A stretch of 64,000 nucleotides of DNA, taken from assembly GCA_015662595.1 (NCBI GenBank), contig DQTV01000045.1, forward strand, positions 2,870 to 66,869, in the 5' to 3' direction. Both the position numbers and the translations under genes were made by a program. The notes under the pieces are model-generated. The model was given only the letters and a program-made list of their open reading frames with translations, was not told where the DNA came from and ran no database searches. Each line of letters opens with the position of its first letter. Positions within the stretch are counted from its first letter, which is position 1. The DNA is from Ignisphaera aggregans. Its GTDB lineage: Archaea; Thermoproteota; Thermoprotei_A; Sulfolobales; Ignisphaeraceae. Shown piece by piece: positions 23,999 through 43,668 of this stretch.

Positions 23999-24013
23999 GC
24001 GAATCTCATCATA

Positions 24014-24811
24014 GTGGGTAGGAAGCGAATGTTGCTTAAGCGGGTATTTGTTGGTTGTTGTGGTTTCCCTGTTAGTAGGAATAGATATTTTACTGAATTC
24101 AAACTTGTTGAACTGCAAAACACCTTCTATGATTTACCATCAGAATCAGACGCTACCTCATTGAGAAATGCCGTTCCAGCAGATGCCGTATTGACAATGA
24201 AAGCTTGGCAAGTCATTACGCATCCAGCTACAAGCCCTACATGGAAGAAGATGAAAAACAAACCTGAAGGAGATTTAGAGAAGTATGGGTATCTAAGGCC
24301 TACTAAGGAGAATTTGAGAGCTTGGGAGAAAACAGTAGACATCGCTAAGATATTACGCGTACGCGCAATAGTCTTACAGACACCCCCGAGTTTTAGATTC
24401 AGCGAGGATAACCTACAAAGTGTAATCAAATTCTTTGAACAAGCATTAAGCATAGCTCCACGGGACATGCTAGTGTGTTGGGAGCCGCGTGGTGACTGGA
24501 ACCTTCATCGCAATGCACTAAAACAAGTAATTGAGCTAGGTATCGTTCACGTTGTTGATATACTCAAAAACGATCCTATAGTCGATGTTACAGGCATATT
24601 GTATGTTAGACTCCATGGTCTAGGCAAAGGCGAGGTCAATTACCGTTACAAGTATACTGATGCCGATTTAGAAAACTTGGTAAACAAGGTTCTAGGCTAT
24701 AGCAATTCGGTACACGAAGCTTACATTCTCTTCAACAACATATACATGTTTGACGATGCGTTGAGGTTCAGACATAAACTCAAAGCGGTGCTGCAGGACA
24801 TAGTTACTTAG
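24014..24811 (+). CDS. DUF72 (UPF0759) family protein
   Basis: VGCCGFPVSRNRYFTEFKLVELQNTFYDLP N-terminus is typical of DUF72 TIM-barrel proteins. Confidence 0.7.
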   Translation: MGRKRMLLKRVFVGCCGFPVSRNRYFTEFKLVELQNTFYDLPSESDATSLRNAVPADAVLTMKAWQVITHPATSPTWKKMKNKPEGDLEKYGYLRPTKENLRAWEKTVDIAKILRVRAIVLQTPPSFRFSEDNLQSVIKFFEQALSIAPRDMLVCWEPRGDWNLHRNALKQVIELGIVHVVDILKNDPIVDVTGILYVRLHGLGKGEVNYRYKYTDADLENLVNKVLGYSNSVHEAYILFNNIYMFDDALRFRHKLKAVLQDIVT

Positions 24812-24832
24812 GTATTCGTTATCACCTAAAGC

Positions 24833-25594
24833 TCAAGCTCGTGGAGCTATCCACACAACTATTTTACCACCACCACTCAGTTCAAGCTCAACCTTCAAAG
24901 GTTTGTCAGGACCGAAGGCCAAGGTGCACTCCTCTGCTAGATCAAGGATTTTAGTCAATACCTTTAAATGATCGACACTATACCGTACACTAACATTGCT
25001 AACTGTAGCCTCGATATAGCTTAAAGGTTTGAATTGCTTTAACTCTGTTCTGTACTCTCCCAGCTCACCAAAGGAGAGAACTCTTAATGCATTGAGATCA
25101 GATATGTACTGAAACGTTACTTCATCGCCAACTATCGCCGCATCTTTAATTATAGTAGCGAGCTCGTCTGTGGGTAATCTAGTTACTACCTCTAACTCGA
25201 TATCTAGCCCACCAAGACGTTGATACGATATCTCGCTTAGGGAAACCATGTATTCACGCTCAACATTCGTACGTACATTAAACACCCTTATCTTCAGCTC
25301 TCTAGATCCTGCTGTGTATTCAAACGTAACCTTATCTCGCTTAGTCGCTCTTTTGAAGGCTCTGACAAACTCATCCTTTTGAGCAATAATATTAGTTTCT
25401 TCTGTCAGTGTATACTCTTCGAAGGTTGATGAAGGAAGTTCGACAAGCAGCATAACAGCCTTATCGGGACTAAGTCCCTCAATAATGAAGCTCTCTGGAG
25501 AGAAGATAAGAGGTACCTCCTCAAGCACGGCAGAAGCTGCTTGAGCAATCTTCTTGAGATTGGCGCCTATAGGATAAGTTGCTCTCAAACTCAT
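24833..25594 (-). CDS. pcna: DNA polymerase sliding clamp PCNA (paralog B)
   Basis: 253 aa, same length and architecture as the first PCNA and clearly divergent from it. Crenarchaea carry multiple PCNA paralogs. Confidence 0.85.
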   Translation of the reverse strand: MSLRATYPIGANLKKIAQAASAVLEEVPLIFSPESFIIEGLSPDKAVMLLVELPSSTFEEYTLTEETNIIAQKDEFVRAFKRATKRDKVTFEYTAGSRELKIRVFNVRTNVEREYMVSLSEISYQRLGGLDIELEVVTRLPTDELATIIKDAAIVGDEVTFQYISDLNALRVLSFGELGEYRTELKQFKPLSYIEATVSNVSVRYSVDHLKVLTKILDLAEECTLAFGPDKPLKVELELSGGGKIVVWIAPRA

Positions 25595-25668
25595 TCTACC
25601 ACCAGTACTTACTAACAGCTTACAGGAGATAAAAGGAGGTACAGAAATAGCATTAGCGGGACAACATT

Positions 25669-26040
25669 ATGAAGGCCCAGATATCTGAAGTCATAGGTCA
25701 ATACATAGCCGTGAAACTTGATGCCGAGGGAGCAATAAAGTTACTCGAAACCCTCAGAGCGAAACTTGGGAAAGGCGGAGAGGATGTTGACGACGCAATA
25801 AGAATGATACGTAATTTTGATGCCTTCTATGATTTCATGCGCAAAAAGTTTAAAGAGTATTTAACTCCGAAGAAGAACTTGTCCGATATGATTAAAGGCC
25901 TCGTCATTGTAGATAAGATAAAGCTTATCAAGGAGAACGATACAAAGTACGTCGTTATCCTCTTCGACCGTTCTATAAGCAAGGGTGATGTTCTTGCTGT
26001 TCTCTCTGAGTTAGGGTACGAGATAGAAACATCGAGCTAA
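25669..26040 (+). CDS. Hypothetical protein
   Basis: 123 aa ORF with good coding appearance. No recognisable motif. Confidence 0.45.
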   Translation: MKAQISEVIGQYIAVKLDAEGAIKLLETLRAKLGKGGEDVDDAIRMIRNFDAFYDFMRKKFKEYLTPKKNLSDMIKGLVIVDKIKLIKENDTKYVVILFDRSISKGDVLAVLSELGYEIETSS

Positions 26041-26321
26041 CTTCTCCTCCGCCGTCTCACACCCTGAGCTGAAATAGCAGGAACAAGCTCTGATATTATC
26101 TTTCTCGCTTCCTCAATGGATACGACACCTGATACCAACTTATCCCACAGCTCGGACCTCCGTAACATCATATCAATGTCGTTTGGATCCAGCTCCTTTA
26201 CATCAACTACCTCCTCATCGATATTGTATTCTTCGCTACTCTCATCACTCCTTGTTTCACCTTCATAAGTTGACGCTTCAAGCTCTTCCTCGGAAATCAT
26301 GGTACCAACCTCATACCCCAA
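26037..26321 (-). CDS. rpo13: Probable RNA polymerase subunit Rpo13
   Basis: 94 aa with an acidic N-terminus, core LDPNDIDMMLRRSELWDKLVSGVVSIEEARKI resembling Sulfolobus Rpo13, and an RRRRRS tail. Confidence 0.5.
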   Translation of the reverse strand: MGYEVGTMISEEELEASTYEGETRSDESSEEYNIDEEVVDVKELDPNDIDMMLRRSELWDKLVSGVVSIEEARKIISELVPAISAQGVRRRRRS

Positions 26322-26355
26322 CTTGAGTGTGGGGAGTATAGAACGCTAATTAACT

Positions 26356-27066
26356 TTACACTACAATAGTTGGACCTGATGGAATTAAACCGGTTATGAT
26401 TAAGGACGACGGTCTGATTATACAGCCACGTAATAGGTTACGAAGCATCAACAGTACACATATAGTACTAGCTAGGCCTGCTGAAAGTAGGGGATTCGGA
26501 ATCGGTAACCGTAGAGTATACATAAGCATGTAAAGCCACATCAATGATATTGCGTATATTGTACAAACATAGCATGTAAGCAGTTCCAACACTCTTCGTC
26601 TCCTTATTATGTTAATAACGTTGATTTTAACACAATACTTAAATCTCATCTCTATATTGTGTATCCTAATGTTCAAGCCTAGCAATCCCATCAATTTTAG
26701 CACGATGAAGAGCGTAAGAATAGACATGAACATGTATATCAACGCAATGATAAAGTCAAAAGACATTGTGTATATAAACAGCGTTTCAAGTAATACCATG
26801 TACCTTCGATTTAGAACTACGTTTCTGAACGACTCGATAAGACACAATACAAAGAGGGTGAACAGTGCTGAAATGCTGTTCATTATCCTATATATAATTG
26901 ATTGTATAAACCACCACGAAGACATGAAAGTTCCTGAAATTGAGTGTAGCGTTGGAGCTGTGTTTGTATAAGGCCATACGCTTAATAATACCGTATATAT
27001 TAGGACCCCTAACACTGCGTTGAACAACGTGACAAGCATCCACATGATATCCTTTAAGCGCATCAT
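26356..27066 (-). CDS. Polytopic membrane protein (6-7 TM), unknown function
   Basis: 236 aa, very hydrophobic, visibly AT-rich codon usage. Divergent from the Lhr helicase gene. Confidence 0.55.
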   Translation of the reverse strand: MMRLKDIMWMLVTLFNAVLGVLIYTVLLSVWPYTNTAPTLHSISGTFMSSWWFIQSIIYRIMNSISALFTLFVLCLIESFRNVVLNRRYMVLLETLFIYTMSFDFIIALIYMFMSILTLFIVLKLMGLLGLNIRIHNIEMRFKYCVKINVINIIRRRRVLELLTCYVCTIYAISLMWLYMLMYTLRLPIPNPLLSAGLASTICVLLMLRNLLRGCIIRPSSLIITGLIPSGPTIVV

Positions 27067-27146
27067 GGTCTATCAACGTCTATAGGGCGTGATACGAGGT
27101 ACACTCTCTGCGTACTCCAGTGAAAATATGAGGAGGAATCAAATAA

Positions 27147-30062
27147 ATGAGCTGCGGCACGTCTACCACGTTGACAAGACAAGCACTTGAGATGTATACG
27201 CTGCTTGGTTTTAAAGAATTAACAGAGATCCAAAGAAATGCTCTTAGACCCTTACTAGAGTCAGAATTGGACGTCTTACTCATCGCTCCTACGGGGAGCG
27301 GAAAAACCGAAGCCGCTTTAATTCCATTGATTGTTCGTATAATCATGAATCGGCAAGTAAAAGGTGTGAAATTGCTTTACATAACTCCTCTTAGAGCACT
27401 GAATAGAGATATCCTCGAGCGTATTACTAAGATAGCCGCTAGGGTTGGTCTGAGTGTGGACGTATGGCATGGAGATACACCGCATGAGCGTAGAAAAAGG
27501 ATCCGTGAACATCCTCCTGACATACTGATAACTACGCCAGAGAGCCTTCAATACCTGTTGATAAATGAAAGAATTGTGGAACACTTTAGGACACTATATG
27601 CGATAATAATCGATGAAGTGCAAGAGTTGGTTGAGAATGAGCGAGGTGCTGAACTTGTATGTGCTTTAGAAAGACTTGACTATAGATTGGGGAGGCATGT
27701 AAGGAGAATTGCCCTTTCGGCTGCTGTGGGAGATGAGAACACTATAGCTCAATACATATTTTCAAAACGTCCATATATAGTCGTGAGGAGCTATGTACAG
27801 AAGCAATACGATATCAAAGTCATTAGTTACGATATCTCTCATACCATTACCAAGCCATCGGAATTTCTACTAGCTATACCAATAGTAGTGTCGGTACTTA
27901 AAGATATTCTGGAAAACCATCGACAGGCATTGTTGTTCGTCAACACGCGTATCACTGCTGAGGCATTAGCGTACTACCTATCGAAGGCACTACAAAGCGG
28001 CACAATACAAGGAATCAACATAGCAGTACATCACGCTTCGCTATCACGTGCAGTTAGAGAAGAGGTAGAAAGATCTCTTCGTCAAAGAATACTAAACTTA
28101 GTAATTGCGACCTCAAGCTTAGAAATGGGGATAGATATAGGCAGCATTGATATAGTGTTACACCTTTACTCTCCACGGCAAGCTAAACGCCTTGCACAGC
28201 GTGTTGGACGTGCAGGCCATCGATGGAATACTATATCTAAGGGCATAATCATAACTCCACCCCTAGTTACAGAGATATTCGAATCTTTAACATTAGCTCG
28301 AAGAACCGTGGAGAGAGATTATGAGCCATTAACTGAGAAGATCGCTCCTCTTGATGTGCTAGCACACCAGATTGTGGGAATAGCGCTTGAGTATGGTAAA
28401 GTGGGTATCGACACCCTTCTCAATATCTTAAGACGTGCACCACCGTTTAGCGAACTATCTGTACATGAACTAGAGGAGGTCATAGAGTTCCTATGTTCTT
28501 TAAACCTAATAAAGCGATACAATGAATATATTGAAGCGACTTCTCGTGGAAAGCTTTATTACTTAACGACAACACCGATAGTCGAGAGTAAGCATTACAT
28601 AGCTAAATCAATTATTGATGGGAGGGTTGTGGGAGTTCTAGATGAAGAGTTCGTAGCCACATGTAATGAGGGTGATATACTTGTACTCGGAGGTAACGTA
28701 TGGAGGTTAGTTTCTCTCGATCTTGACAAAGAGGAGATATTGTTAGAACCTGTAACGAACCCAAGCGAGATTAAGATACCGCACTGGGTTGGTGAAAATA
28801 TTCCCGTTGATTGGCGTGTTGCACGTGAAACGTGCTCATTAATAAGGAGGTTTTGCACCTTAGACGAGGCAAAGGCTGTGCAAGTGCTTAAACGCTACTT
28901 TGCAGATGACAAACTAATTGAGTACTTGCTCAGTATACGGAAAGAAGTATGTAGAGTTTATCCACGGGACAACGAATTTGTTATTGAGATTGTTAAAGGA
29001 AATGCGAATGTTCTCGCAGCTTTCTACCACTGTCAGGGCTCTAAAGTCTCTGAAACTCTTTCCCTACTCCTAACCAGACTCTTTCGTAAGAGTGGGGAGA
29101 AAGTCTATGGTTACAAATCACATCAACTAGCATCGGTTCTGCTATTGGGACAAACATTGGGTATTAATACGATTAGGAAAGTTATTGCAGATCTTGCAAG
29201 GCTTGGTAAAGACGAAATCGTTAAAATTCTAGAAGACGAATTGAAGGAGACACCAATATTTAAGTGGCGCTTGTTAGCTGTAGCCAAGAAGTTGGGTATG
29301 ATATCAAAGGATGCCAGCTTACGTGAACTCAAAAAACATGCAGAGGCGTTACGCAATGTTAACATTGTCGTGAAGGAAGCATTACGGGAACTCATTAGTG
29401 AGCGTCTTGATATCGATACCACTATGAATCTACTCGATAAAATTAAATCGAGACATATTCGAGTTAAGGTATACGTTGCTAATAAACCCTCGAGATACTT
29501 AACCGAAATATTGTCTTTGACGCCATTCATTGAGCTTAGAACCGCGACCTCTGTCATAGATGATATAATTCGCGAATCAATCAAGCGTAGGCTATTAGAG
29601 CGCGAGATTACCCTGTTCTGCTTATCCTGTCTAAATTCATGGAACACAAAACTCTCTTCACTACTGAAGGACACAATTGATGAGCTAAACGCAATCCATA
29701 TATCAAAACATAAGATAAGTTGCCCAATCTGCGGTTCCCAAACTTTAACACTTATTAACAACAGGGATGAGATTCCCGTACTCAGGTCAGCTTTAAACAA
29801 GCTCAAAAAAGGTCTACGTGATCCTTCACAATATACAGATGATGAAAGGCGTATACTGAAGAGGGCTCAGACTATAGCGAATCTTATCATGGACTATGGT
29901 GTATTCGCATTAATAGCGTTACAGGGTAAGGGTGTAGGACCTGAAACTGCAAAGAGAATTCTAGCACGAGCATCCACATTCAACGATTTGATAAAGTTGA
30001 TTTACGAAAGTGAGAAGGAGTTCTTGAGAACGTATCATTACTGGAACCGCACTTCAAAATGA
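27147..30062 (+). CDS. lhr: Lhr-type large SF2 DNA/RNA helicase
   Basis: 971 aa. Q motif and motif I TEIQRNALRPLL...LLIAPTGSGKTEAAL. Motif II IIIDEVQEL...ERGAELVCALERL. SAA(V) motif III, HHASLS, QRVGRAGH motif VI. C-terminal CLSC...CPICG zinc ribbon. GAGGAGG Shine-Dalgarno sequence upstream of the ATG. Confidence 0.85.
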   Translation: MSCGTSTTLTRQALEMYTLLGFKELTEIQRNALRPLLESELDVLLIAPTGSGKTEAALIPLIVRIIMNRQVKGVKLLYITPLRALNRDILERITKIAARVGLSVDVWHGDTPHERRKRIREHPPDILITTPESLQYLLINERIVEHFRTLYAIIIDEVQELVENERGAELVCALERLDYRLGRHVRRIALSAAVGDENTIAQYIFSKRPYIVVRSYVQKQYDIKVISYDISHTITKPSEFLLAIPIVVSVLKDILENHRQALLFVNTRITAEALAYYLSKALQSGTIQGINIAVHHASLSRAVREEVERSLRQRILNLVIATSSLEMGIDIGSIDIVLHLYSPRQAKRLAQRVGRAGHRWNTISKGIIITPPLVTEIFESLTLARRTVERDYEPLTEKIAPLDVLAHQIVGIALEYGKVGIDTLLNILRRAPPFSELSVHELEEVIEFLCSLNLIKRYNEYIEATSRGKLYYLTTTPIVESKHYIAKSIIDGRVVGVLDEEFVATCNEGDILVLGGNVWRLVSLDLDKEEILLEPVTNPSEIKIPHWVGENIPVDWRVARETCSLIRRFCTLDEAKAVQVLKRYFADDKLIEYLLSIRKEVCRVYPRDNEFVIEIVKGNANVLAAFYHCQGSKVSETLSLLLTRLFRKSGEKVYGYKSHQLASVLLLGQTLGINTIRKVIADLARLGKDEIVKILEDELKETPIFKWRLLAVAKKLGMISKDASLRELKKHAEALRNVNIVVKEALRELISERLDIDTTMNLLDKIKSRHIRVKVYVANKPSRYLTEILSLTPFIELRTATSVIDDIIRESIKRRLLEREITLFCLSCLNSWNTKLSSLLKDTIDELNAIHISKHKISCPICGSQTLTLINNRDEIPVLRSALNKLKKGLRDPSQYTDDERRILKRAQTIANLIMDYGVFALIALQGKGVGPETAKRILARASTFNDLIKLIYESEKEFLRTYHYWNRTSK

Positions 30063-30065
30063 CGC

Positions 30066-30072
30066 TATATAA
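30066..30072 (+). promoter_or_regulatory. TATA box for the three-gene membrane operon
   Basis: TATATAA centred 27 nt upstream of the ATG at 30096, consistent with a leaderless transcript. Located 4 nt after the helicase stop. Confidence 0.5.
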
Positions 30073-30095
30073 GGGTGTAAATAGGTCGGGGGTCA

Positions 30096-30368
30096 ATGGA
30101 TATCGTAATGCTAATTAAGGACCTGATCGCAAAAGCTGTGGTAGTAGCTTGGTTCCTATTCCTACTGACATGGATAATAGGTTGGGCAATCAAGGGAGCG
30201 CCAATACCTATTGGCAGAGCTCGGCGGATAGGTCAAGGTATGGTAGAGGATGCTGTATGGGGAGCTTTCTGGATAGCTGTAGGCTCAGCATTATTCTGGC
30301 TAGTAACATATATAGCTAGCTATCTTGGGCAGACATTTCCACAACCACCACAGCCACAATTACCTTAA
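30096..30368 (+). CDS. Small 2-TM hairpin protein, VirB2/CedA1/TedC-like pilin candidate
   Basis: 90 aa. Two hydrophobic helices (AVVVAWFLFLLTWIIGWAI and AVWGAFWIAVGSALFWLVTYIASYL) flank a basic loop KGAPIPIGRARRIGQG. PQPPQPQLP tail. Confidence 0.45.
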   Translation: MDIVMLIKDLIAKAVVVAWFLFLLTWIIGWAIKGAPIPIGRARRIGQGMVEDAVWGAFWIAVGSALFWLVTYIASYLGQTFPQPPQPQLP

Positions 30369-30392
30369 ACGAGGCCTTTAGCTAAGCCTTAG

Positions 30393-31775
30393 GTGTTCAT
30401 TGTGCATTACCTACTAATCGTGGCCTACTACTTATCGATTCTTACATTCTATCTAGGTGCGTTGATGTATTTGCTACCCATCCCGTTAACTGGGCTTAAA
30501 CGATGGGGGCCTAGGCTTATTAGTGATGCTCTTTTTATTTTAGCACTGTCTATATCGATAGGCTCAATCTTCTCCTTCGCAGATTTTCTAAGAACAACTC
30601 TGGGAGGTGATTGGCAACACTTCCTCTCGTTTTTGAAGGGATTAGTAATCCAAAATACATTCACTTTGATAGTGCTGTCTCAAGCGCAATATATACTCTC
30701 AAAGTTTGGTCTATCAAAGGTGCTCGGGATAATAACACAAACAATTTCATACTCTCTCTATGTACTACTCATGTTCTACATCTTAGCATTGATAATAAGG
30801 TCTGCCTATGGGGTCATAGCATCTCTAGGCATAGCTTTGATGGCTATACCCTTCAGAATCGCTAGAAGTGCCGGAGCATTCCTGCTTGCACTTTCAATAG
30901 TCTTCTATATAGCATTGCCCCTCTATCCTGGATTCGTTGACTTGCTATTAACAGGGCATGCATATTCGCATCAGAACAGCATCATAATATACGGACGTAT
31001 TATCAATGAAGACAATACCGTACTGAACTCTGGTTTCCTCACTCTGGAACTAAAAGATTATACTAATGAGAACAAAATTTATTTGGTACCGATCACAAAT
31101 GGGGTTTTCTACATATTTGACTTGCCTAAGAACATTAGCCTGAACTCAAAGATCACAATATTCTATGACGTTACAGGACATCTATTCTATACAAACATAA
31201 CTAATATATCCCTACATCAGCTTTGCAATACATCTACTACCTCACGATATTTTTGGCTATGCGAAATCTCTGTTTTAGTTCGAGGAGTGCTATACTACGA
31301 TGACGGTATAACACTGCACGTAAACCCGTGGCCAGAGAAGAAATATGTGATATATAATCCTCATGACAATACAATCAGAGTTGACGTGAGCTGTGCTGAC
31401 TGTGAACTCTACATATCTTTCGTAAATTCTAGGGTTCCGAGTGCTGTGTGCATAGACAGTCAGTGTAAAGATATTCGCGAATTTATAAGGTATTGTTGGC
31501 AATGGTATGTATTAGATGGGTGTACAGCCATTATCAGTATTAGTGGAAACCATACCGTGTTAGTTAAGCTCAATAGTGCGTCTTCAGAGCCCATACTAAT
31601 ATTGTCGATGATTAGCAAGCTCCGCTCTACCACACACATATCGCCATTGGAATTCATAGCTCGACTAATATATGTTCAGTTAATTAGCGCCATTCTGTAT
31701 CTAGCATTATTATTAAGCATAACCCTTGGTTTAGCTCGGCTACTTGGCGGCACCTCAAGGTTTAGGGTGATATAG
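30393..31775 (+). CDS. Polytopic membrane protein with Cys-rich ectodomain, CedA/VirB6-like candidate
   Basis: 460 aa. About 6 N-terminal TM helices, then roughly 220 aa of beta-type region with 9 Cys and at least 5 N-x-S/T sequons, then a C-terminal TM anchor. Lies 24 nt after the pilin-like ORF. Confidence 0.4.
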   Translation: MFIVHYLLIVAYYLSILTFYLGALMYLLPIPLTGLKRWGPRLISDALFILALSISIGSIFSFADFLRTTLGGDWQHFLSFLKGLVIQNTFTLIVLSQAQYILSKFGLSKVLGIITQTISYSLYVLLMFYILALIIRSAYGVIASLGIALMAIPFRIARSAGAFLLALSIVFYIALPLYPGFVDLLLTGHAYSHQNSIIIYGRIINEDNTVLNSGFLTLELKDYTNENKIYLVPITNGVFYIFDLPKNISLNSKITIFYDVTGHLFYTNITNISLHQLCNTSTTSRYFWLCEISVLVRGVLYYDDGITLHVNPWPEKKYVIYNPHDNTIRVDVSCADCELYISFVNSRVPSAVCIDSQCKDIREFIRYCWQWYVLDGCTAIISISGNHTVLVKLNSASSEPILILSMISKLRSTTHISPLEFIARLIYVQLISAILYLALLLSITLGLARLLGGTSRFRVI

Positions 31776-31776
31776 T

Positions 31777-31953
31777 TTGAATACATTGAAACGAAACACA
31801 ATACTTTTCCTCTCCTTCATAACGATATTACTGCTTATCATAGCATTTAGCAAAGGTATCACGTTAGCCGAGGCGTTAATGTATGCTATAGCTATAGTAT
31901 TAGGCATCCTCCTCATAGTCACGTTACACGATGTAGAAGATCAGAGGTTTTAA
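31777..31953 (+). CDS. Small 2-TM protein (58 aa), CedA2-like candidate
   Basis: Below the ORF-track cut-off. Own translation from TTG 31777: LNTLKRNTILFLSFITILLLIIAFSKGITLAEALMYAIAIVLGILLIVTLHDVEDQRF. Starts 1 nt after the preceding stop. Confidence 0.35.
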   Translation: MNTLKRNTILFLSFITILLLIIAFSKGITLAEALMYAIAIVLGILLIVTLHDVEDQRF

Positions 31954-31982
31954 CCTATTACCTATGGTTAAGGAAGACATTA

Positions 31983-32318
31983 CTATACCTCTATTATTTC
32001 GACTTTGGACCATATGATGCCCTTACTGACATCATCTAAACACTTGTCGATATAGCTTTTCAAATCTCTTAAGTCTATAGCGCTTTCCTGAGGCACGACC
32101 TTAATGTATATGAAGTTAGGGACTACGAGACTACGCTTCACCTCAATGTGACAGTTAATACCTTTCGATGTAAATACGCTATTCAGTTTTGATAGTATCT
32201 CCTCTAACAGCTCCTCATTCCTTAGTATTATGAACAGATTTAGGTATCGTTGCCGTTTTGCGCTGCCGTAGCCCATACTAATGCCTTGCACCTCTCTAAG
32301 CGTTTCGTCGTATTCCAT
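31983..32318 (-). CDS. Hypothetical protein
   Basis: 111 aa ORF, convergent with the membrane operon. No recognisable motif. Confidence 0.45.
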   Translation of the reverse strand: MEYDETLREVQGISMGYGSAKRQRYLNLFIILRNEELLEEILSKLNSVFTSKGINCHIEVKRSLVVPNFIYIKVVPQESAIDLRDLKSYIDKCLDDVSKGIIWSKVEIIEV

Positions 32319-32412
32319 AACCTTTTGTTAGACTACAACCACATGTTTAACGATATGCAACAGCAATTTATAGGTTACTCTATCACTACTTTTTGGAATG
32401 CGAGGATTTATC

Positions 32413-32460
32413 ATGCTGAGGGGTGCAAACGCTGAACACATGATGACCATACCCGTCTGA
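32413..32460 (+). ncRNA. Weak C/D box sRNA candidate
   Basis: AUGCUGA(C, A4 to C mismatch)-12 nt GGGGUGCAAACG-CUGA-4 nt-AUGAUGA-10 nt CCAUACCCGU-CUGA. The C-box defect and the 10-nt spacer lower confidence. Confidence 0.25.
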
Positions 32461-32508
32461 GACAGCTACATAACTACGCTATTATGCCACGTTATATACA
32501 ATAAGTAA

Positions 32509-32560
32509 TCAGTTAGGGGATCCTCACATCACGAAATTCAGCACTCGGCAATTTCATCAT
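32509..32560 (-). ncRNA. C/D box sRNA
   Basis: Minus strand: AUGAUGA(C 32560-54)-12 nt AAUUGCCGAGUG-CUGA(D')-5 nt-GUGAUGU(C')-13 nt GAGGAUCCCCUAA-CUGA(D 32512-09). A TTTATTAA box is centred about 28 nt upstream of the C box. Confidence 0.6.
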
Positions 32561-32586
32561 TGTCGAGAGTCTTATTCTGCATCATG

Positions 32587-32596
32587 ATTAATAAAC
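32587..32596 (-). promoter_or_regulatory. TATA box for the C/D sRNA at 32560
   Basis: Minus-strand GTTTATTAAT. The predicted start is 3-5 nt before the C box. Confidence 0.4.
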
Positions 32597-32794
32597 TCTC
32601 ATAAGTTTCGATATACGAGTTTGGTAGGTAGACATGGGCGGTAGACAAAGAACAAGTCTATTCTTGGGCATAGAAAAGTCCAGTACGTCTACTACAGAGC
32701 AAAAGAGTGAAAAGAAAGAGAAGAAAAAGAAGAAGTAGAACCGTAAAGCCTTACCATGAACCTCTTCAAATGGCCTCCACCAAAAAGGAGCTGC

Positions 32795-33676
32795 ATGCTT
32801 AAAATCCTTGTCCCTATCTCAACTGTTTCAATAAAGCAAAGCCAAGTATTAAGATTAATAACCATATGGGAAATTGCTAGAGCTGCTGCAATTGTTAGAT
32901 GTACACACCTGCTTTTTTATAAGGATCTGGAGGTGAAAGACCGTGAGATTGTAACGCTTATTGAGAAAACCTTGCGCTACCTCCTAACACCACCATACCT
33001 TAGAAAGAAGGTCATACCTTTGGACCCACAACTCCGTCTCGTTGGTATACTCAATCCTCTCGCGCTTCCAATTCATTACAGAAGAGACGATCCAGTCTTG
33101 GGTTCTGTACGATTAGCATTAATTGAGTTGAAGAATGATACTGTTGTGGCCCATATTGGAACCGATAAACCATGTACCATGATCGACGTCAAGGCCTCAG
33201 ATCTTAATCTTGTAAACCCTCTGCAATTTGTTGAAGTAGTATCCCTCAGTCCATTGCTTTGTAAACTGGTACAAGAAGACAATGTAAAGATTTACACGGG
33301 ATTTAAATACCGTTTCTATGACTCGTTGAAAGAGGCTCTATATCAAGAATGTAGAGATAGTGTATTAATTGAGTTCTCTAAGTTTGGAATGGATGCTAAA
33401 AAGGCTTTGCGCTCTCTACGTGCAATAGCAAGTAAGCAGAAAATTAATATTCTGTGTACAGTCTTCGGATCTCCATCAATGGACGCTAGCGAGATCTTAG
33501 CTAAGGAAAATGGTACTGATATCTCCTCTTACGCTAAATCACAGCTTCATGCACACTACCTACGCATAAACGCTGTGCCATATCAGGGAGTTAGATCGAT
33601 CCGTACACACGAAGCGTTATACCTAGCCCTAGCAATACTTAACCTCATACTATTCGATCTCAAAATCTGCTGTTAG
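32795..33676 (+). CDS. SPOUT-superfamily methyltransferase (COG2106/DUF171-like)
   Basis: MLKILVPISTVS...ITIWEIARAAAIVRCTHLLFY pattern. Sits directly upstream of rpl3, the usual archaeal position. The ORF track starts at 32756 and the ATG at 32795 is preferred. Confidence 0.5.
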   Translation: MLKILVPISTVSIKQSQVLRLITIWEIARAAAIVRCTHLLFYKDLEVKDREIVTLIEKTLRYLLTPPYLRKKVIPLDPQLRLVGILNPLALPIHYRRDDPVLGSVRLALIELKNDTVVAHIGTDKPCTMIDVKASDLNLVNPLQFVEVVSLSPLLCKLVQEDNVKIYTGFKYRFYDSLKEALYQECRDSVLIEFSKFGMDAKKALRSLRAIASKQKINILCTVFGSPSMDASEILAKENGTDISSYAKSQLHAHYLRINAVPYQGVRSIRTHEALYLALAILNLILFDLKICC

Positions 33677-33760
33677 TGTTACTGAAAGACCCTTTTGCCT
33701 AACTTTATCTTAGCTTATATACCCGTGGATACTTACATACATTAGCCAAGGAGGCATACC

Positions 33761-34786
33761 ATGGCTCACAGGAAGACGCATGCACCTAGACGAGGAAGTC
33801 TAGGGTTCAGACCGAGGAAACGTGCCAGTAGACTCGTACCCAGAGTACGATCGTGGCCCGAGGTTTCCTTACCTAAGCCTCAATTACTTGGATTCTTAGC
33901 TTACAAAGCCGGTATGACCCACGTATTCATGATCGATGACAGACCCAACACTCCTACATCGGGGAAGGAGGTGTTTACACCGGTAACTATTCTTGAAGCG
34001 CCACCGGTTATACCAATAGCTCTAAGAGCATACCGGCTGGTACCTGGATACGGGTATCTCACGTTAACAGACATATGGATTGAGCCTCCAGAGCATCTAG
34101 AGATATGGCGAAAGGTTCCAACATATAGGGCTACCGAAAACATAGAGTCGAAGATAAAATGGCTTGAGGATAACATCTCTAAGATAGCTAGAATAAGCGT
34201 CATCATCGCTTCACAACCAAAGTTGGTTGGAGGGTTAAGTAAGAAGAAACCCGATTTGGTTGAGATCGCTATCGGCGGCGGTACAATGCAAGAAAGACTT
34301 GAATATGCATGGAAAATCCTAGGAAAGGAGGTTAGTGTTAGAGAGGTGTTCAAAGAAGGACAGTTTGTTGATGTAATTGGGGTTACAAAGGGTAAAGGAT
34401 TCCAAGGAGTTATTAAGAGATTTGGTGTTAAAGAGCTTCCACGATGGCATAAGCATAGAAAGGGGAGTAGGCGTATAGGAAGTAGAAGCCCAACTATAGG
34501 AGCTATGTCTGAAGTTCCACAGCCAGGTCAGATGGGATTCCATAGACGTACAGAATACAACAAGAGAATACTCAAGATAGGTGATAATGGTCTTGAAATA
34601 ACGCCTGCCGGTGGATTCCCACATTATGGCATAGTTAGAAGTACGTGGATCATGTTAAAAGGCACAGTGATGGGACCTCCAAAGAGGCCAATAGTGTTGA
34701 GATGGCCAATCAGGCCTCCTAAGTGGCAACCAAGCGGCCCTCCTGTGATTACTTACATAAGCCTAGAGAGCAAGATTGGTGGGTAG
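33761..34786 (+). CDS. rpl3: 50S ribosomal protein L3 (uL3)
   Basis: [23 protein letters not shown]-terminus. GGAGG Shine-Dalgarno sequence 7 nt upstream. Confidence 0.95.
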
Positions 34787-34787
34787 C

Positions 34788-35606
34788 ATGGTAAAAGCTT
34801 ACATAACTCCACTTCTTCGAGAACCAGGAGAAGTTCCGGTATACAATCTTGATGGATCAATCGTTGATAAGGTTAGGTTGCCAAACGTATTCGGGCTTCC
34901 AGTTAGGATAGATGTGATAAGGCGTGCTGTACACTCAGCCTTGACAGCTCGTATTCAACCAAAAGGCAGAGATCCTCTTGCAGGAAAGAGACGTTGTGGA
35001 GAATCGTGGGGTATAGGTTATGGTCTTGCAAGGGTTCCTCGACTAGATAATGGAAGAGCTGTCTTTGCGCCAAACGTTGTTGGTGGTAGAAGACAGTTTG
35101 CGCCCTCACCTCTAAAGAAAATACATGAAGAGATAAACCGTAAGGAGATGCGCTTAGCGATAATGTCTGCACTTGCCGCTACAGCAATAAGAGACTTCGT
35201 GATTAAACGAGGACATCATGTACCTCCACACATAACGCAGTTACCAGTAGTTGTAGTAGACGACTTTGAAAACATTAAGCGCACGAAGGAGTTACGTCAG
35301 GTATTAGAGAAGATAGGTCTGTGGTCCGACATCTTAAGGGCAGCAGAAAAGACAAGAATTAGAGCAGGTAAGGGCAAAATGCGTGGTAGGAGATATGTAA
35401 CGCCAAAGAGTATATTATTCATAGTGTCGTCGTTAGAAAGCTCCGTTATCAATGCTATAAAGAACTTGCCAGGCTCCGATTACGCAACACCATTCACATT
35501 GAATATCTTAACACTCGCACCTGGAGGACATCCAGGGAGATTAACGGTATTTACACGTAGTGCCTTATCCAAAATAGCAGAGCTATACCCGGTGATTAAG
35601 GCATGA
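34788..35606 (+). CDS. rpl4: 50S ribosomal protein L4 (uL4)
   Basis: The ATG lies 1 nt after the rpl3 stop. VYNLDGS...GESWGIGYGLARVPR motif. Confidence 0.93.
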   Translation: MVKAYITPLLREPGEVPVYNLDGSIVDKVRLPNVFGLPVRIDVIRRAVHSALTARIQPKGRDPLAGKRRCGESWGIGYGLARVPRLDNGRAVFAPNVVGGRRQFAPSPLKKIHEEINRKEMRLAIMSALAATAIRDFVIKRGHHVPPHITQLPVVVVDDFENIKRTKELRQVLEKIGLWSDILRAAEKTRIRAGKGKMRGRRYVTPKSILFIVSSLESSVINAIKNLPGSDYATPFTLNILTLAPGGHPGRLTVFTRSALSKIAELYPVIKA

Positions 35607-35893
35607 GTAAGGAGACGGATCAAGTTAGTGAGCTAGAACGATTGAGCAGGATAATAGTTAGATTCGTGACTACGGAGAAAGCCTATCTATTAGCTGAGAA
35701 ATACAATTATATCACATTGAAGGTAATTAGAAGCGCTAACAAAAGGCAGATAAAGGAAGCTGTTGAAAAGCTGTTCAAGGTGAAGGTAGTTAAAGTGAAC
35801 ACACTGATAGATCGTGATGGGTATAAGAAAGCTTATGTGAAGCTCGCACCTGAGTACAGGGCCATAGAACTTATTGAGAGGGCAGCGAGATAA
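35603..35893 (+). CDS. rpl23: 50S ribosomal protein L23 (uL23)
   Basis: 96 aa, IIVRFVTTEKAYLL...KVKVVKVNTL. Shows a 4-nt overlap with rpl4. Confidence 0.9.
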   Translation: MSKETDQVSELERLSRIIVRFVTTEKAYLLAEKYNYITLKVIRSANKRQIKEAVEKLFKVKVVKVNTLIDRDGYKKAYVKLAPEYRAIELIERAAR

Positions 35894-35913
35894 AACACAA
35901 ATATATTCCGCTT

Positions 35914-36369
35914 TTACTTCAATGCCACGAAGAGGGTACTCCTCGTCGCTTTAAGTCCTGGTTCACCATGTTTAACCATCTTAGTTGTGGGAGCAAATTC
36001 TCCTAAGTAATGACCTATCATTTCCGGTACTATTTTCACAGGAATATACTCTTTGCCATTGTATACGGCAATGGTTAATCCAACCATTATTGGCAATATT
36101 ATCATGTCTCGTACATGTGTCTTTATCACAACCTCTTTACATTCTTCGATAAGCTTTTGACGCGCTTCAAGTATTTTTTCGAGCAGTCTACGTTGCTCTG
36201 GCGTAAATCCCCTCTTTAACGATCTTCTAGCACGAGCTGGCAGTAACTGTACTAACTCATCCATAGGCATTTCTATCAACTCCTCAAGTGTTTTACCTCG
36301 ATACCTAAACTTTTTCCACTCTGGCGGTATGCTCCAACATACCTTACGCTGCGAACTCATGGTATTCAA
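35914..36369 (-). CDS. rps19: 30S ribosomal protein S19 (uS19), inverted relative to neighbours
   Basis: [26 protein letters not shown] motif. Encoded on the opposite strand to rpl23 and rpl2. Confidence 0.9.
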
Positions 36370-36437
36370 CCACCACGTACTTCTTATTTAGATGATTAGC
36401 TTATAATCTTTATTAACCAAATAACATCGGTAAAGCC

Positions 36438-36938
36438 ATGCAGATTTACGTAGTGGTATACTCAGCATTTCGCGATTTCATGGAGTACCGTGAATATTAT
36501 GACCTCATAATATCTGACCAAGGATTATACATGCTTTTATTGGGACGCTTACCACTCGTTTATAAGAAGCATCCTGCGCTGCCAAAGAGAGTGGAGAAAC
36601 AGCTCCTTGAAATAATGAAGTCGCGTAGTCGGGATAAGTATCACGATATGGATACTCTAATGCGTCTTGTCCATCAAAAACGTGCAATGTTTATACCCAA
36701 CGAAAACGTCGTAGGAGTGGTATTGAACGAGGAGGAGATACCAATACCACCAATACTTAGGAAACCTCCCTCAGATCCACGGGAGCCTCCAAAGTATTCT
36801 CAGCGCGTCTTAGCAATAACTACATACTGGAAAGACTCTTCGCAACTACGTTCACTAACGCTGTATACAACCCCCAAAATTAAGGATAAGATTAAGCGGG
36901 GACTGAAAGAGGCTGGATACTATATCAGCATTACTTAG
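36438..36938 (+). CDS. Hypothetical protein inserted between rps19 and rpl2
   Basis: 166 aa ORF. No recognisable motif. Confidence 0.45.
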   Translation: MQIYVVVYSAFRDFMEYREYYDLIISDQGLYMLLLGRLPLVYKKHPALPKRVEKQLLEIMKSRSRDKYHDMDTLMRLVHQKRAMFIPNENVVGVVLNEEEIPIPPILRKPPSDPREPPKYSQRVLAITTYWKDSSQLRSLTLYTTPKIKDKIKRGLKEAGYYISIT

Positions 36939-37002
36939 CAGCTATGTCTAAGTAAGGTTTAAAGTCAGATCAGCTTCAACTACACTCCTGGAGGCTGAGA
37001 CT

Positions 37003-37725
37003 ATGGGTAAAAGAATACTAGTGCAGCGCATGGGACGTGGAAGCCCAACATTTCGTAGCCCTAGCCATAAGAGGGTTGCACCCGCGAAGTATCCTCCACC
37101 TGAAAACAGGTTGCTTAGGGGTGTTGTTGCTGAGCTAGTACATGATCCAGGACGCTGGGTACCCCTTGCACGTATCGTATTAGAGGACGGTAGAGAGTTT
37201 TATAACATAGCTGTCGAGGGATTACGAGTTGGTCAAGTAATTGAGATAGGTCCGGGAGCTAAGCCTACACCAGGAAATGTAATGTTGCTTAGAGACGTGC
37301 CAGAGGGCACACGAGTTTGTAATTTAGAGATACGGCCAGGAGATGGAGGAAAACTTGCTAGAGCCGGTGGAACATACGCTGTAGTTATTGGTAAGACTTC
37401 CACACACGCAATCGTTGTATTGCCGAGTGGTAAACAGAAACTACTTCCACTTGATTGCCGTGTAACTATCGGAGTAGTAGCAGGAGGTGGACGTGTGGAG
37501 AAGCCATTACTTAAAGCAGGCAATGCTTATCACAAGTGGAAGGTGAAGGCACGTAAATGGCCTCGCGTAAGAGGAGTGGCTATGAACGCTGTAGACCATC
37601 CACACGGAGGCGGTTCACACCAGCGTGAGTCCAAACCAACGACAGTTTCACGCAACGCACCTCCAGGCAGAAAGGTTGGTCATATAGCCGCTAAACGCAC
37701 TGGAAGAAAGAAGGGTGCACACTAA
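37003..37725 (+). CDS. rpl2: 50S ribosomal protein L2 (uL2)
   Basis: MGKRILVQRMGRGSPTFRSPSHKR and VAMNAVDHPHGGG motifs. Confidence 0.95.
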   Translation: MGKRILVQRMGRGSPTFRSPSHKRVAPAKYPPPENRLLRGVVAELVHDPGRWVPLARIVLEDGREFYNIAVEGLRVGQVIEIGPGAKPTPGNVMLLRDVPEGTRVCNLEIRPGDGGKLARAGGTYAVVIGKTSTHAIVVLPSGKQKLLPLDCRVTIGVVAGGGRVEKPLLKAGNAYHKWKVKARKWPRVRGVAMNAVDHPHGGGSHQRESKPTTVSRNAPPGRKVGHIAAKRTGRKKGAH

Positions 37726-39146
37726 ACGCCATAGAATTTTCTTAACATGAGCTCAATATTGTTAAATCCTGGTGGGGTCTCAGCAAGAATCCGTGCTCTT
37801 AACTCTAGCTCGTCCAGTACATTGTCTAAGCCTAGTCTTACCGCTATTCTCCTAAGTATGTTGCTGCTATCTATCCTATCTACACCCTTAATATCGTATA
37901 TCAGCGCCCAGCCATCAGCGACACGCTCATAAACGGAGGTTACTACACGTCTAACCTGTTTTCCATGGCGTTGACGGGACACCATGATTAACAGCGCTGT
38001 GTTCAGCGATAGCATAACATACAAATCTCTTGGGAGTAGATTTCGCAAAGCCATTTCAAATTCTTCAGGAGTTGACGCATGAAAGGTAGTAGCAGAGCCC
38101 GCACCTGAAGCTACAGCTCTAACAAGTGCGATTATCTCCTTTCCTCTAACTTCGCCCACTACCAACATATCAGGACGGTATCTCAAAGCCGTTATACAGC
38201 GAATAAACAAATCCTCTGACGACTCACCGTAGAATTGTATGAAACGAGCCCTCGAAGGAAACCTTATCTCTGGTACATCTTGTACAACTATGATCTTCCA
38301 ATTTGGGTTCGTAAGCTGTAGCACCGCATTGAGAAGAGATGTTTTACCACTTCCACTACCACCAACCACAGCATAAAACAGCTTAGCATCGTTCACTAAC
38401 CATAGAAGAGCTGCAAGACGTGGAGTCAAAACTCCTTCCCTAATCATAGTGCCTACATCTATTGGTATCTCGGGAAGCTTCCTTATATCAAATGTAGGAC
38501 TTGAACTTACAGGCTCTCCTAATGTAGCTGAGAAACGATGACCTTCAGGAAGTATTGCATGGACTTCAGGTTTTGCAAGTGAAATTCCTTTACCAGAACG
38601 TAATGCTAACCTCTCAATTATTGCACGCACTTCCTCCTCACTATGAAATACAATGTTGGTGACTAAAGCCTCAAATGCAAGAAATTCACGATGAACAACC
38701 GTTACCGGCCTACGCCAATCAGATAGTTCAATATCCTCAATCATGGGATCTAACATAGGTATCTCGAGAAGGCCGTATCCAAATGAATCGCGACGGATGT
38801 AATACCATAGAGCCTCGAACTCACGTGACAACACCTTATCTACGCCTAACTCTGTAGCGAGCTCATGAATGATCTTTTTCAGATGCTCTTCATTCTCCAC
38901 CCTCATGGTCGATGTATAGAGGTAGTCCATAAGAAGCATGTAGACGTTTTCAGCTTCGGCACTTAATGGCGGTTCATCAATGAGATACCTTGCCACCCCT
39001 GACTTATCTAAACATATTGTAACTTCAGCCAAGCTCACTCTATACTTTCGCAAAATCTCTAAACATACGTTATTTATGTCAGGTGCAGAGATGCGCCTTA
39101 GTACGTGCATTGGGACTGCCCGTCTTCGACGATACAGTGCACTCAT
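37722..39146 (-). CDS. Type II/IV secretion-family ATPase (VirB11/FlaI/PilT-like), no adjacent membrane partner
   Basis: 474 aa. Walker A VVGGSGSGKTSLLNAV, IVVQDVPE, RYRPDMLVVGEVRGKE and a His-box-like TFHAS. The N-domain pattern YLIDEPPLS is typical of archaeal FlaI-type ATPases. Confidence 0.8.
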   Translation of the reverse strand: MSALYRRRRAVPMHVLRRISAPDINNVCLEILRKYRVSLAEVTICLDKSGVARYLIDEPPLSAEAENVYMLLMDYLYTSTMRVENEEHLKKIIHELATELGVDKVLSREFEALWYYIRRDSFGYGLLEIPMLDPMIEDIELSDWRRPVTVVHREFLAFEALVTNIVFHSEEEVRAIIERLALRSGKGISLAKPEVHAILPEGHRFSATLGEPVSSSPTFDIRKLPEIPIDVGTMIREGVLTPRLAALLWLVNDAKLFYAVVGGSGSGKTSLLNAVLQLTNPNWKIIVVQDVPEIRFPSRARFIQFYGESSEDLFIRCITALRYRPDMLVVGEVRGKEIIALVRAVASGAGSATTFHASTPEEFEMALRNLLPRDLYVMLSLNTALLIMVSRQRHGKQVRRVVTSVYERVADGWALIYDIKGVDRIDSSNILRRIAVRLGLDNVLDELELRARILAETPPGFNNIELMLRKFYGV

Positions 39147-39236
39147 TTCACTCCCAAGGTATGCGAGGATTTATAGCGTCACTTAGAAGGAGTGTCAGTT
39201 AATAGGAAGAGGTTAGAATTGATTTACGACCCCGCT

Positions 39237-39283
39237 GGCTCCCCCCTTCATCCTCCTCGGAACCGAGGTGTCTGGGGGGTTCC
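39237..39283 (-). other. GC-rich hairpin between the H+-PPase stop and the ATPase promoter
   Basis: CCCCCC (39241-46) pairs with GGGGGG (39274-79). Inner stem CCTC(39255-58)/GAGG(39265-68) with asymmetric internal loops. No box motifs were found. Confidence 0.3.
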
Positions 39284-39319
39284 CATGATAGTGTTAAAAG
39301 TTTTGTGTGGAACCTTTAA

Positions 39320-41551: not shown

Positions 41552-41629
41552 GGGCCCGTAGCTCAGCCTGGATAGAGCGCCGGCCTTCGGAGCCGGTGGT
41601 CCGGGGTTCAAATCCCCGCGGGCCCGCCA
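41552..41629 (+). tRNA. tRNA-Arg (anticodon UCG), CCA encoded
   Basis: Manual cloverleaf: GGGCCCG acceptor, GCUC/GAGC D stem, CCGGC-CUUCGGA-GCCGG anticodon arm, CGGGG-UUCAAAU-CCCCG T arm, G73, CCA. No intron. Confidence 0.93.
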
Positions 41630-41698: not shown

Positions 41699-42287
41699 AT
41701 TTGTGCAGTGTCTTACCTAACGATGATGCAATTCTGTCGGCAACTCTGAGACAGTAAGGTTCGGGGTATATCGATGCATATCGGAAAAAGAGCTTTACTC
41801 CGTTCATTACACTTACACCTATCACCGTAATCCTTACCTCTACTCCCCTCACTGGACTTCTAACTTTGTGTGAAGCCCTATAGGTCTGCTCTATCACTTT
41901 ATACCTGTATTTCCAATCAACGAAATGAGCTCTTAAAGCTGAAAGGACTTTCTTCAAATCTAACTCATGTCTGAAGACCACTATGACTGGTATATTAAGC
42001 ATGTTATGAAGCCTTAATGGGTCTATGATATTGAAACCTGCGTAGGTAACACCATCTAAAAATACCACTTCTAGGTAAGGACCGTATCTACTAACAGCTT
42101 TCTCAACCATTTGCATAGCCTGAGATATAGCGTCAAGCCCATCAATTGTGATGAAAGAGATTAGAACGTCTAAAATCCTACGGTCTACAGTGGTTATTGT
42201 ACCAACAAGTACTGTTTTTCCATAGATCTTCTTGTCCTCAAATGCGAAATAGCCATCATCTAGACCTATCGAGCAATACCTCAACAT
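41676..42287 (-). CDS. DUF99 (UPF0215) family protein
   Basis: N-terminal IGLDDGYF motif typical of UPF0215. 203 aa. Shows a 32-nt overlap with the orc1/cdc6 3' end. Confidence 0.7.
   Translation of the reverse strand: MLRYCSIGLDDGYFAFEDKKIYGKTVLVGTITTVDRRILDVLISFITIDGLDAISQAMQMVEKAVSRYGPYLEVVFLDGVTYAGFNIIDPLRLHNMLNIPVIVVFRHELDLKKVLSALRAHFVDWKYRYKVIEQTYRASHKVRSPVRGVEVRITVIGVSVMNGVKLFFRYASIYPEPYCLRVADRIASSLGKTLHKYDESRRR

Positions 42288-43591: not shown

Positions 43592-43668
<77 letters not shown>

Follow-up and report, generated by a model that had tools for sequence, protein, structure and literature searches.

The 64-kb stretch of DNA analysed here, referred to below as the window, comes from Ignisphaera aggregans (assembly GCA_015662595.1, contig DQTV01000045.1), and all positions are numbered within it. 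It carries a compact block of three open reading frames (ORFs) which we read, with a probability of about 0.85, as the membrane module of the Ced system (crenarchaeal exchange of DNA), a domesticated machine of the type IV secretion kind by which cells take up chromosomal DNA from their neighbours (PMC9905601). The locus is an additional instance of this known system and no new kind of system, and it adds an Ignisphaera-related lineage to those carrying Ced. Its polytopic protein, CedA, bears a large domain that is predicted to lie outside the cell (the ectodomain), and on sequence comparison this is the majority state of the CedA family, the short CedA of Sulfolobus being the exception. The block consists of the following genes, separated by gaps of 24 nt (ORF1-ORF2) and 1 nt (ORF2-ORF3).

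30096-30368 (+): ORF1, cedA1; 90 amino acids (aa), ATG start
30393-31775 (+): ORF2, cedA; 460 aa from the listed GTG start, homologous to the CedA profile
31777-31953 (+): ORF3; 58 aa, TTG start, at the position of cedA2

A search of Pfam-A with ORF1, ORF2 and ORF3 returned no match for any of them, and the assignments come from other models. ORF1, a hairpin of two hydrophobic helices with a basic loop between them, matched the NCBIfam model NF041797 ('DNA import protein CedA1') with 100.6 bits, the curated cut-off being 100 (E 3.6e-29). When ORF1 was compared with all PDB sequences the sole match was 8dfu_B (E 1e-21, aa 2-78, basic loop included), the pilin chain of 8DFU, which is the cryo-EM structure of the Aeropyrum pernix Ced pilus (PMC11823120). 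MD(I/V) starts are kept in relatives of ORF1, and since the alignment to the filament pilin begins at its residue 2, ORF1 is predicted to carry no signal peptide. On these matches ORF1 is CedA1, a VirB2-like pilin without a signal peptide; a VirB2-like pilin is also what an earlier note on this DNA (the original prediction) had suggested, and both the above-threshold family match and the 8DFU alignment bear that out.

The evidence for ORF2 divides along the protein, for which three regions were delimited.

30393-30968 (+): CedA membrane core, aa 1-192; N-terminal CedA1-like hairpin at aa 1-69, six predicted transmembrane (TM) segments
30969-31637 (+): CedA ectodomain, aa 193-415; two tandem beta-sandwich modules, predicted extracellular, with 5 N-x-S/T sequons and 8 Cys
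31644-31751 (+): CedA C-terminal TM helix, aa 418-453, from the AlphaFold2 model

Residues 1-186 matched the NCBIfam CedA model NF041796 at profile positions 1-192 of 259 (E 2.4e-37), and the model of the paralogue CedE matched ORF2 more weakly. A profile built from 40 CedA homologues matched the 8DFU CedA1 pilin through its N-terminal 67 positions (E 0.003), and this reproduced the published homology between the N-terminus of CedA and CedA1 (PMC9905601). The core contains the motifs LPIP..K.W.P and PFRIAR..GA in invariant alignment columns, and L440, G452, G453 and R458 are conserved near the C-terminus. The nearest relatives of ORF2 are 81% identical (P0002, from a metagenome contig) and 59% identical (from the NCBI metagenome-assembled genome (MAG) GCA_054008095.1), and the CedA of I. 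aggregans DSM 17230 (Igag_0132) is 41% identical; public records label both cedA1 and cedA of I. aggregans as hypothetical protein. By sequence, ORF2 is CedA, the polytopic VirB6-like channel or platform protein of the system.

The hydropathy of ORF2 gave seven hydrophobic segments. An AlphaFold2 model computed with the 40 homologues (mean predicted local distance difference test score, pLDDT, 83.5) was helical over residues 2-192 and all-beta over 197-393, followed by a short helix at 401-412 and the long C-terminal TM helix. When Lys and Arg residues were counted over 80 family members, the loops at 28-41, 100-109 and 153-161 and the C-terminal tail held on average 2.8, 1.1, 2.0 and 3.2 of them, and the alternate loops 0.2-0.5. 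These values fit a topology with the N-terminus outside, seven TM segments and the C-terminus inside, and on that topology the beta-domain, placed after the sixth TM segment and before the last, is predicted to lie outside the cell, and the basic tail GGTSRFRVI after the last helix to be cytoplasmic. Thus the C-terminal anchor that had been foreseen for ORF2 is retained, while the accompanying count of about six TM helices is better given as seven, six before the domain and one after it.

The ectodomain (~225 aa) was modelled confidently by itself (aa 193-415, pLDDT 87.6, predicted TM-score 0.85), with beta-sandwich modules at approximately 197-267 and 288-393. All 8 Cys and all 5 sequons of ORF2 fall within residues 247-386. 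Sequons occur in the ectodomains at 1.68 per 100 aa, whereas Lhr, a cytoplasmic helicase, has 0.29 in the same genomes; the observed mean of 3.8 sequons is 1.8 times the 2.08 expected from shuffles, and Lhr lies under its own expectation. The Ignisphaera clade retains the pair C278/C290. The remaining six Cys (aa 334-377; 31392-31523) occur as adjacent pairs spaced CxxC, CxxxxC and Cx8C, and are confined to the window, to L003 (its 59%-identical relative) and, in part, to L017. The domain had been called Cys-rich, a description that holds for the window's sub-lineage, only C278 and C290 being kept across the Ignisphaera clade. From their pattern the six additional Cys are probably lineage-specific extra disulfides. 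A zinc site formed by CxxC...CxxxxC (C334/C337 and C353/C358) was also considered and is less probable; disulfides are likelier because the Cys are paired with near neighbours, restricted to one sub-lineage and situated in a domain predicted to be extracellular.

No known family or specific fold was recognised in the ectodomain. Pfam searches with 16 ectodomains gave nothing consistent, the best hit being a single member at E 0.03, and Foldseek searches (the whole model and the ectodomain against PDB, the ectodomain against BFVD) gave no specific match, with TM-scores of at most 0.34. The weak neighbours were generic beta-sandwiches, namely Gram-positive pilins, the S-layer protein SlaB, teneurin and carboxypeptidase-regulatory-like domains, and we take the modelled fold no further than two tandem beta-sandwiches. 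Among 1.84 billion representative proteins, a profile of the 16 ectodomains retrieved no more than 24. Most of these are 447-482 aa long and were matched at about residues 190-410, and are CedA itself; five proteins of 303-333 aa cover most of the profile and are read as probable partial CedA, and the remaining few are weak, short and repeated matches in very large proteins. From this search the ectodomain appears to be essentially confined to CedA.

The distribution of the domain was followed by a contig scan with one genome per GTDB species, which gave 80 loci with a best hit of 41% identity, and by look-ups of exact proteins, which gave five more; together they yielded 80 distinct CedA sequences. 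The first homologue search had already returned two kinds of protein, forms of ~455-468 aa in Ignisphaera and forms of ~280 aa without residues ~195-410. In the full set, 67 of the 80 CedA are long (447-501 aa, with an insert of 224-262 aa). The 13 short ones comprise nine from Sulfolobaceae (259-268 aa), which have a loop of 26-36 aa in place of the beta-domain, and four from MAGs of a single Desulfurococcales clade (~281 aa). An iterative profile search using inserts only, started from the Ignisphaera clade (E <=1e-3 at a nominal database size of one million), connected the 67 inserts without drawing in any of the short loops; because it joined every insert, the 67 are regarded as one homologous domain.

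Relationships were examined on a midpoint-rooted neighbour-joining tree of a 230-column TM core. In it the short Desulfurococcales clade falls within the Ignisphaera-type long forms, and this clade has exactly the same synteny, and because of both, these sequences are best read as having lost the ectodomain secondarily. The Sulfolobaceae form one clade nested among long forms with weak rooting, a placement that suggests loss of the ectodomain in Sulfolobales also. All fetched loci whose CedA1 is closest to that of A. pernix (APE_0220a, 56-65% identity) have a long CedA, and the cedA of A. pernix is probably long-form as well. The original prediction had not associated such an ectodomain with CedA and had proposed a possibly undescribed variant. 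It is indeed undescribed in the Ced papers searched, the original 2016 Ced paper being outside that set, and CedA is presented there as a 6-7-TM protein (PMC9905601, PMC11823120); as a variant, however, it does not stand, since 67 of 80 CedA possess it. No paper in the searched literature pairs 'Ignisphaera' with 'CedA', and the supplementary files of the 2025 Ced papers hold nothing on Ignisphaera.

ORF3 is a 58-aa hairpin of two TM helices. In most loci an ORF of 50-66 aa with two helices begins within a few nt of the cedA stop, and in Sulfolobaceae the ORF at this position matches the CedA2 model NF041798. In the loci of Acidilobaceae, Caldisphaera and Thermodiscus the small gene is absent and cedB, the gene for the Ced ATPase CedB, directly follows cedA. 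CedA2 has been described as not conserved (PMC9905601), and homology among such tiny hydrophobic proteins may be undetectable. ORF3 is a real conserved gene and the CedA2 equivalent by position and topology. The proposed order cedA1-cedA-cedA2 therefore holds for the place and topology of the third gene and not for sequence homology with CedA2, which was not detected. In I. aggregans CP002098 a two-helix ORF of 61 aa follows Igag_0132 (L001 11388-11573) and is uncalled in the gene set.

The block appears to have its own promoter, and two short elements were located by reading the sequence.

30066-30072 (+): TATATAA box of the ced operon promoter; promoter activity inferred
31766-31770 (+): GGTGA, Shine-Dalgarno-like motif 6 nt 5' of the ORF3 TTG; function inferred

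The stop codon of the helicase gene (TGA, 30060-30062, +) lies directly 5' of the block. The first base of TATATAA is the fourth nt past this stop, and the centre of the box is 27 nt 5' of the ATG at 30096. A comparable A/T-rich, TTTATAA-like box was found 24-33 nt 5' of the conserved cedA1 ATGGAT start in 11 related loci. The position of the box would imply a leaderless mRNA or one with a very short leader. With respect to ORF2, the in-frame codon GTG 30402 is preceded at 6 nt by GGTG, and homologues begin at the equivalent of ORF2 residue 4-5; because of that correspondence the true start is probably GTG 30402, giving 457 aa, and not 30393. The coordinates, the placement of the box, and the spacing and features of the ORFs had all been given correctly before.

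The order of the three-gene block is kept in dozens of genomes, and cedA1 and cedA are adjacent in every locus having both ends. A longer arrangement is common to I. aggregans DSM 17230 and several MAGs, and comprises Lhr, cedA1, cedA, the small gene, a convergent small ORF, an RNA methyltransferase gene and the ribosomal protein genes L3-L4-L23. A consistent association with an unrelated transporter or an S-layer locus, which had been named as an outcome that would count against Ced, was not seen, the neighbours being the helicase, the RNA methyltransferase and ribosomal proteins. Rfam searches of 24000-40000 and a tRNA scan of the whole window found no RNA genes in or beside the block. The helicase gene immediately upstream is as follows.

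27147-30062 (+): Lhr-type DEAD/DEAH helicase, 971 aa; Pfam DEAD, Helicase_C, WH_Lhr and DEAD_assoc

Lhr immediately precedes cedA1 in Ignisphaera-type loci, and does so too in the short-form Desulfurococcales and in one MAG of Pyrodictium (L083). In other Desulfurococcales it is found 2.3-3.8 kb 5' of cedA1, with a gene for an ATPase resembling CedD, the second Ced ATPase, placed divergently beside it. Loci in which Lhr and ced are linked include L001, L003, L004, L005, L023, L034, L055 and L083. No paper in the searched literature ties Lhr to Ced; the helicase could be an accessory that processes transferred DNA, or its place could reflect retained synteny and nothing more.

Genes for the ATPases were sought around all loci. 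In about 40 long-form loci CedB is encoded 0-200 nt 3' of cedA or of the small gene (the copy in L005 matches NF041017 with 277 bits), and in those loci a second HerA/VirB4-type, CedD-like ATPase gene is often found divergent beside the Lhr helicase. Eight of the nine Sulfolobaceae loci are without such an ATPase gene within 10 kb; the ninth (L060, Acidianus) has CedB ~5.3 kb downstream. Searches of protein databases with the L005 CedB and with an alignment of 18 CedB sequences returned only close relatives of the query, a result that was limited by the word index and is no evidence of absence.

Several observations weigh against assignment of the block to Ced, or against particular parts of that assignment. 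No CedB or CedD is encoded in the window, as judged by a six-frame search with the CedB profile and with CedB and CedD sequences; the original prediction had likewise noted the lack of a VirB4/CedB-like ATPase, and the search agrees that no CedB/HerA-type ATPase is present. Nor is either ATPase encoded within 10 kb of about 17 Ignisphaera-type loci. ORF2 scores 129 bits against NF041796, for which the equivalog cut-off is 330; all long-form CedA fall below this cut-off, and the model was built on short CedA of the Sulfolobales type. The AlphaFold2 model draws residues 108-151 as one helix, while the seven-TM topology needs a turn near 134-138. ORF3 gave no match to the CedA2 model NF041798 at E up to 1, and an hhalign comparison of the Ignisphaera-type small ORFs with Sulfolobaceae CedA2 gave a probability of 1.8%. 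With respect to the history of the ectodomain, a midpoint-rooted neighbour-joining tree does no more than suggest its loss in Sulfolobales, and with respect to its function, the argument proceeds from topology and analogy, the Foldseek resemblances being generic. Finally, the assignment to Ced is gene-based, and DNA transfer and UV induction in the window's lineage are predictions. That the window is without CedB does not refute the assignment, because in Sulfolobales too CedB is unlinked: in S. acidocaldarius it is saci_0748 and the membrane genes are saci_0567-0569, and the unlinked CedB and CedD are essential in Sulfolobales (PMC11823120).

A pilus or channel resembling a type IV secretion system (T4SS) could in principle serve another purpose, such as export or conjugation of DNA, adhesion or protein secretion, with the ectodomain as an adhesin or as a receptor for species recognition in the manner of Ups pili. 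The direction of transfer and UV induction have been shown in Sulfolobales only (PMC11823120, PMC11868833), the Ced literature reports that CedA1 and CedE of Sa. islandicus contribute to export as well, and some crenarchaea have Ced without Ups (PMC9905601). The short CedA occurs in Sulfolobaceae, the lineage that bears Ups, and the weak structural neighbours of the ectodomain are surface pilins, adhesins and SlaB. Against this, the genes in the window are orthologous to Ced genes by sequence and by synteny, and neither Pfam nor Foldseek detected a lectin-like or specific adhesin fold in the ectodomain. We consider such an alternative use unlikely. It is highly improbable that the block is a decaying remnant, in which CedB and CedD have been lost and DNA is no longer transferred by the products of the membrane genes. 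Such decay would account for the absence of ATPase genes near the Ignisphaera-type loci, where the other long-form loci have CedB adjacent, and for the failure of the protein-database searches, limited by the word index as mentioned above, to turn up an Ignisphaera CedB. However, all three ORFs are intact, with 37-81% identity across Ignisphaera-type genomes, and because the invariant motifs and the promoter box are also kept, purifying selection is indicated; moreover, Sulfolobaceae have an unlinked CedB that is functional.

The block might also be part of a mobile element, such as an integrated conjugative plasmid, with T4SS-like genes of its own. Archaeal conjugative plasmids encode VirB4/VirD4-like proteins and polytopic membrane proteins. 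Ced itself is thought to be a domesticated T4SS (PMC9905601). The locus, however, lies between the conserved Lhr and L3-L4-L23 genes, amid core genes (PCNA, primase, SecY, RtcB), and the same arrangement recurs in I. aggregans and several MAG genera. No VirB4/HerA-type ATPase is encoded anywhere in the window, no tRNA gene lies within 9 kb of the block, and no integrase family was matched by any of the 10 large ORFs of the window that were scanned. An integrated conjugative element was therefore rejected on the conserved core synteny and the lack of ATPase genes in the window, and since the context of the locus is chromosomal, core and syntenic, this origin is extremely improbable.

The system can be set beside those already described. 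The CedA1 and the CedA core of the window are homologous to those of the Ced systems of S. acidocaldarius and Saccharolobus islandicus (CedA, CedA1, CedA2, CedB and CedD; saci_0567-0569, saci_0748 and saci_0667). The order cedA1, cedA, small 2-TM gene is shared with Sulfolobus Ced, as are the pilin-like N-terminus of CedA and a membrane operon free of ATPase genes. In contrast to the window, Sulfolobaceae have a CedA without the ~225-aa beta-domain and no Lhr directly 5' of cedA1, and ORF3, unlike its Sulfolobus counterpart, does not match the CedA2 model. UV induction and DNA import have been demonstrated for Sulfolobus Ced only, whereas the system in the window is known from its genes. The A. 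pernix CedA1 (APE_0220a, PDB 8DFU) aligns with ORF1 over 77 residues, including the basic loop, and likewise has no signal peptide. A. pernix belongs to a different family-level lineage. In the fetched loci whose CedA1 is nearest to its own, the gene next to cedA on the 3' side is usually that for CedB, and there is no small 2-TM gene.

The Ted system of Thermoproteales (TedC, TedA and the VirB4-like TedB; PDB 8DFT) resembles the window in having a VirB2-like pilin beside a VirB6-like polytopic protein (PMC9905601). TedC, however, has a cleaved Sec signal peptide and ORF1 none, and the components of Ced and Ted share no recognisable sequence similarity (PMC9905601). Ted loci carry genes for VirB4, ParA, HerA and Rad50 nearby, none of which is found in the window. 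Identity with Ted was rejected, as ORF1 lacks a signal peptide and belongs to the CedA1 family and as no VirB4-like gene is present in the window. Of the 'Ced/Ted-like' module first suggested, the Ced half is upheld by NF041797, NF041796, 8DFU and the gene order in some 80 genomes, and the Ted half falls away.

Bacterial T4SSs offer a more distant comparison. 'Extended' VirB6-family proteins, such as TraG of the F plasmid, have large extracytoplasmic domains involved in mating-pair stabilisation, and are the closest functional analogy for the CedA ectodomain. Even at E values as high as 1, ORF2 did not match Pfam TrbL/VirB6, no VirB6 chain was among the top 50 Foldseek matches of the whole ORF2 model, and a PDB search with the CedA family profile matched only the CedA1 pilin. 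The published link from CedA to VirB6 is indirect, going through HHpred comparisons of TedA with VirB6 and of CedA with TedA (PMC9905601). VirB2 and VirB6/TrbL (e.g. R388 TrwI, PDB 7O3V) share with the Ced proteins a two-helix lipid-binding pilin and a platform with a pilin-like N-terminus (PMC9905601). The bacterial systems export, in contrast to Ced, for which the reported direction of transfer is import.

A working model of the Ced system in this lineage would run as follows. The genes cedA1, cedA and ORF3 would be transcribed from their own promoter as a leaderless or short-leader mRNA. CedA1 would form the pilus and CedA the channel or platform, with ORF3 in the role of CedA2 as a small membrane partner of CedA, and CedB and CedD would be encoded elsewhere in the genome. 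The ectodomain, N-glycosylated, may stand as an extracellular collar or stalk over the CedA channel, between the membrane and the S-layer, where it might steady or gate the base of the pilus, or make contact with the partner cell. To our knowledge archaea are without the bacterial periplasmic T4SS components VirB5, VirB8 and VirB10, and the ectodomain may stand in for these. It may be ancestral, with one loss in the short Desulfurococcales clade and a further, probable one in Sulfolobales, whose Ups pili or other structures may have taken its place. In the system as published, oligomers of CedA serve as the channel and pilus-assembly platform, and CedA1, once extracted from the membrane, assembles together with lipids into a pilus of the VirB2 type (PMC9905601, PMC11823120); CedB and CedD power assembly and DNA translocation, and the imported DNA enters recombinational repair (PMC11823120, PMC11868833).

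Any specific role for the ectodomain, drawn as it is from analogy, is put forward tentatively. Equally speculative is the fuller proposal of an ancestral, CedA-specific glycosylated collar or stalk that reaches the S-layer or the partner cell and replaces periplasmic T4SS parts or recognition of the Ups type, with Lhr as a DNA-processing factor.

No archaeal machine for importing chromosomal DNA other than Ced has been characterised; it is related to the conjugation systems of bacteria and has been domesticated. The picture of CedA as a bare 6-7-TM protein derives from Sulfolobales and appears atypical, most CedA having a conserved, family-exclusive and probably glycosylated extracellular domain. 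If so, the literature would have overlooked this domain because the genetic models of Sulfolobales have lost it. The ectodomain offers a handle on how the Ced pilus or channel crosses or docks at the S-layer and contacts the donor cell, and points to possible connections with the Lhr helicase beside the operon and with whether a lineage has Ups pili.

Other genes of the window deserve mention. Besides Lhr and CedA, its ORFs of at least 398 aa encode SecY, RtcB, PriS, a FlaI/BasE-type ATPase, H+-pyrophosphatase, Orc1, AhcY, Trm1, Nop56 and GatE. A 236-aa polytopic membrane protein without Pfam or NCBIfam match is encoded at 26356-27066 (-), divergently from Lhr, at the site where other lineages have CedD-like ATPases; proteins matched to it by size and place are found in I. 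aggregans (L001 5956-6618) and L003 (5962-6669). At 31983-32318 (-) an ORF of 111 aa without family match is convergent on ORF3. ORFs of 79-97 aa occupy the same place in L001, L003 and L004, and the I. aggregans counterpart has the same C-terminal motif 'V(E)(L/I)IEV'.

The FlaI/BasE/T2SSE-type pilus-assembly ATPase (37722-39146, -; 474 aa) is an orphan, placed between the genes for ribosomal protein L2 and H+-pyrophosphatase with no adjacent gene for a membrane partner. Its best NCBIfam match is BasE (250 bits, far under the cut-off), and it is kept near the ced locus in Ignisphaera-type contigs. The Orc1/Cdc6 gene (42256-43560; NF001625, 509 bits) lies between genes for tRNA-Arg and tRNA-Ala (41552-41629 and 43592-43668), and a replication origin may be situated nearby.

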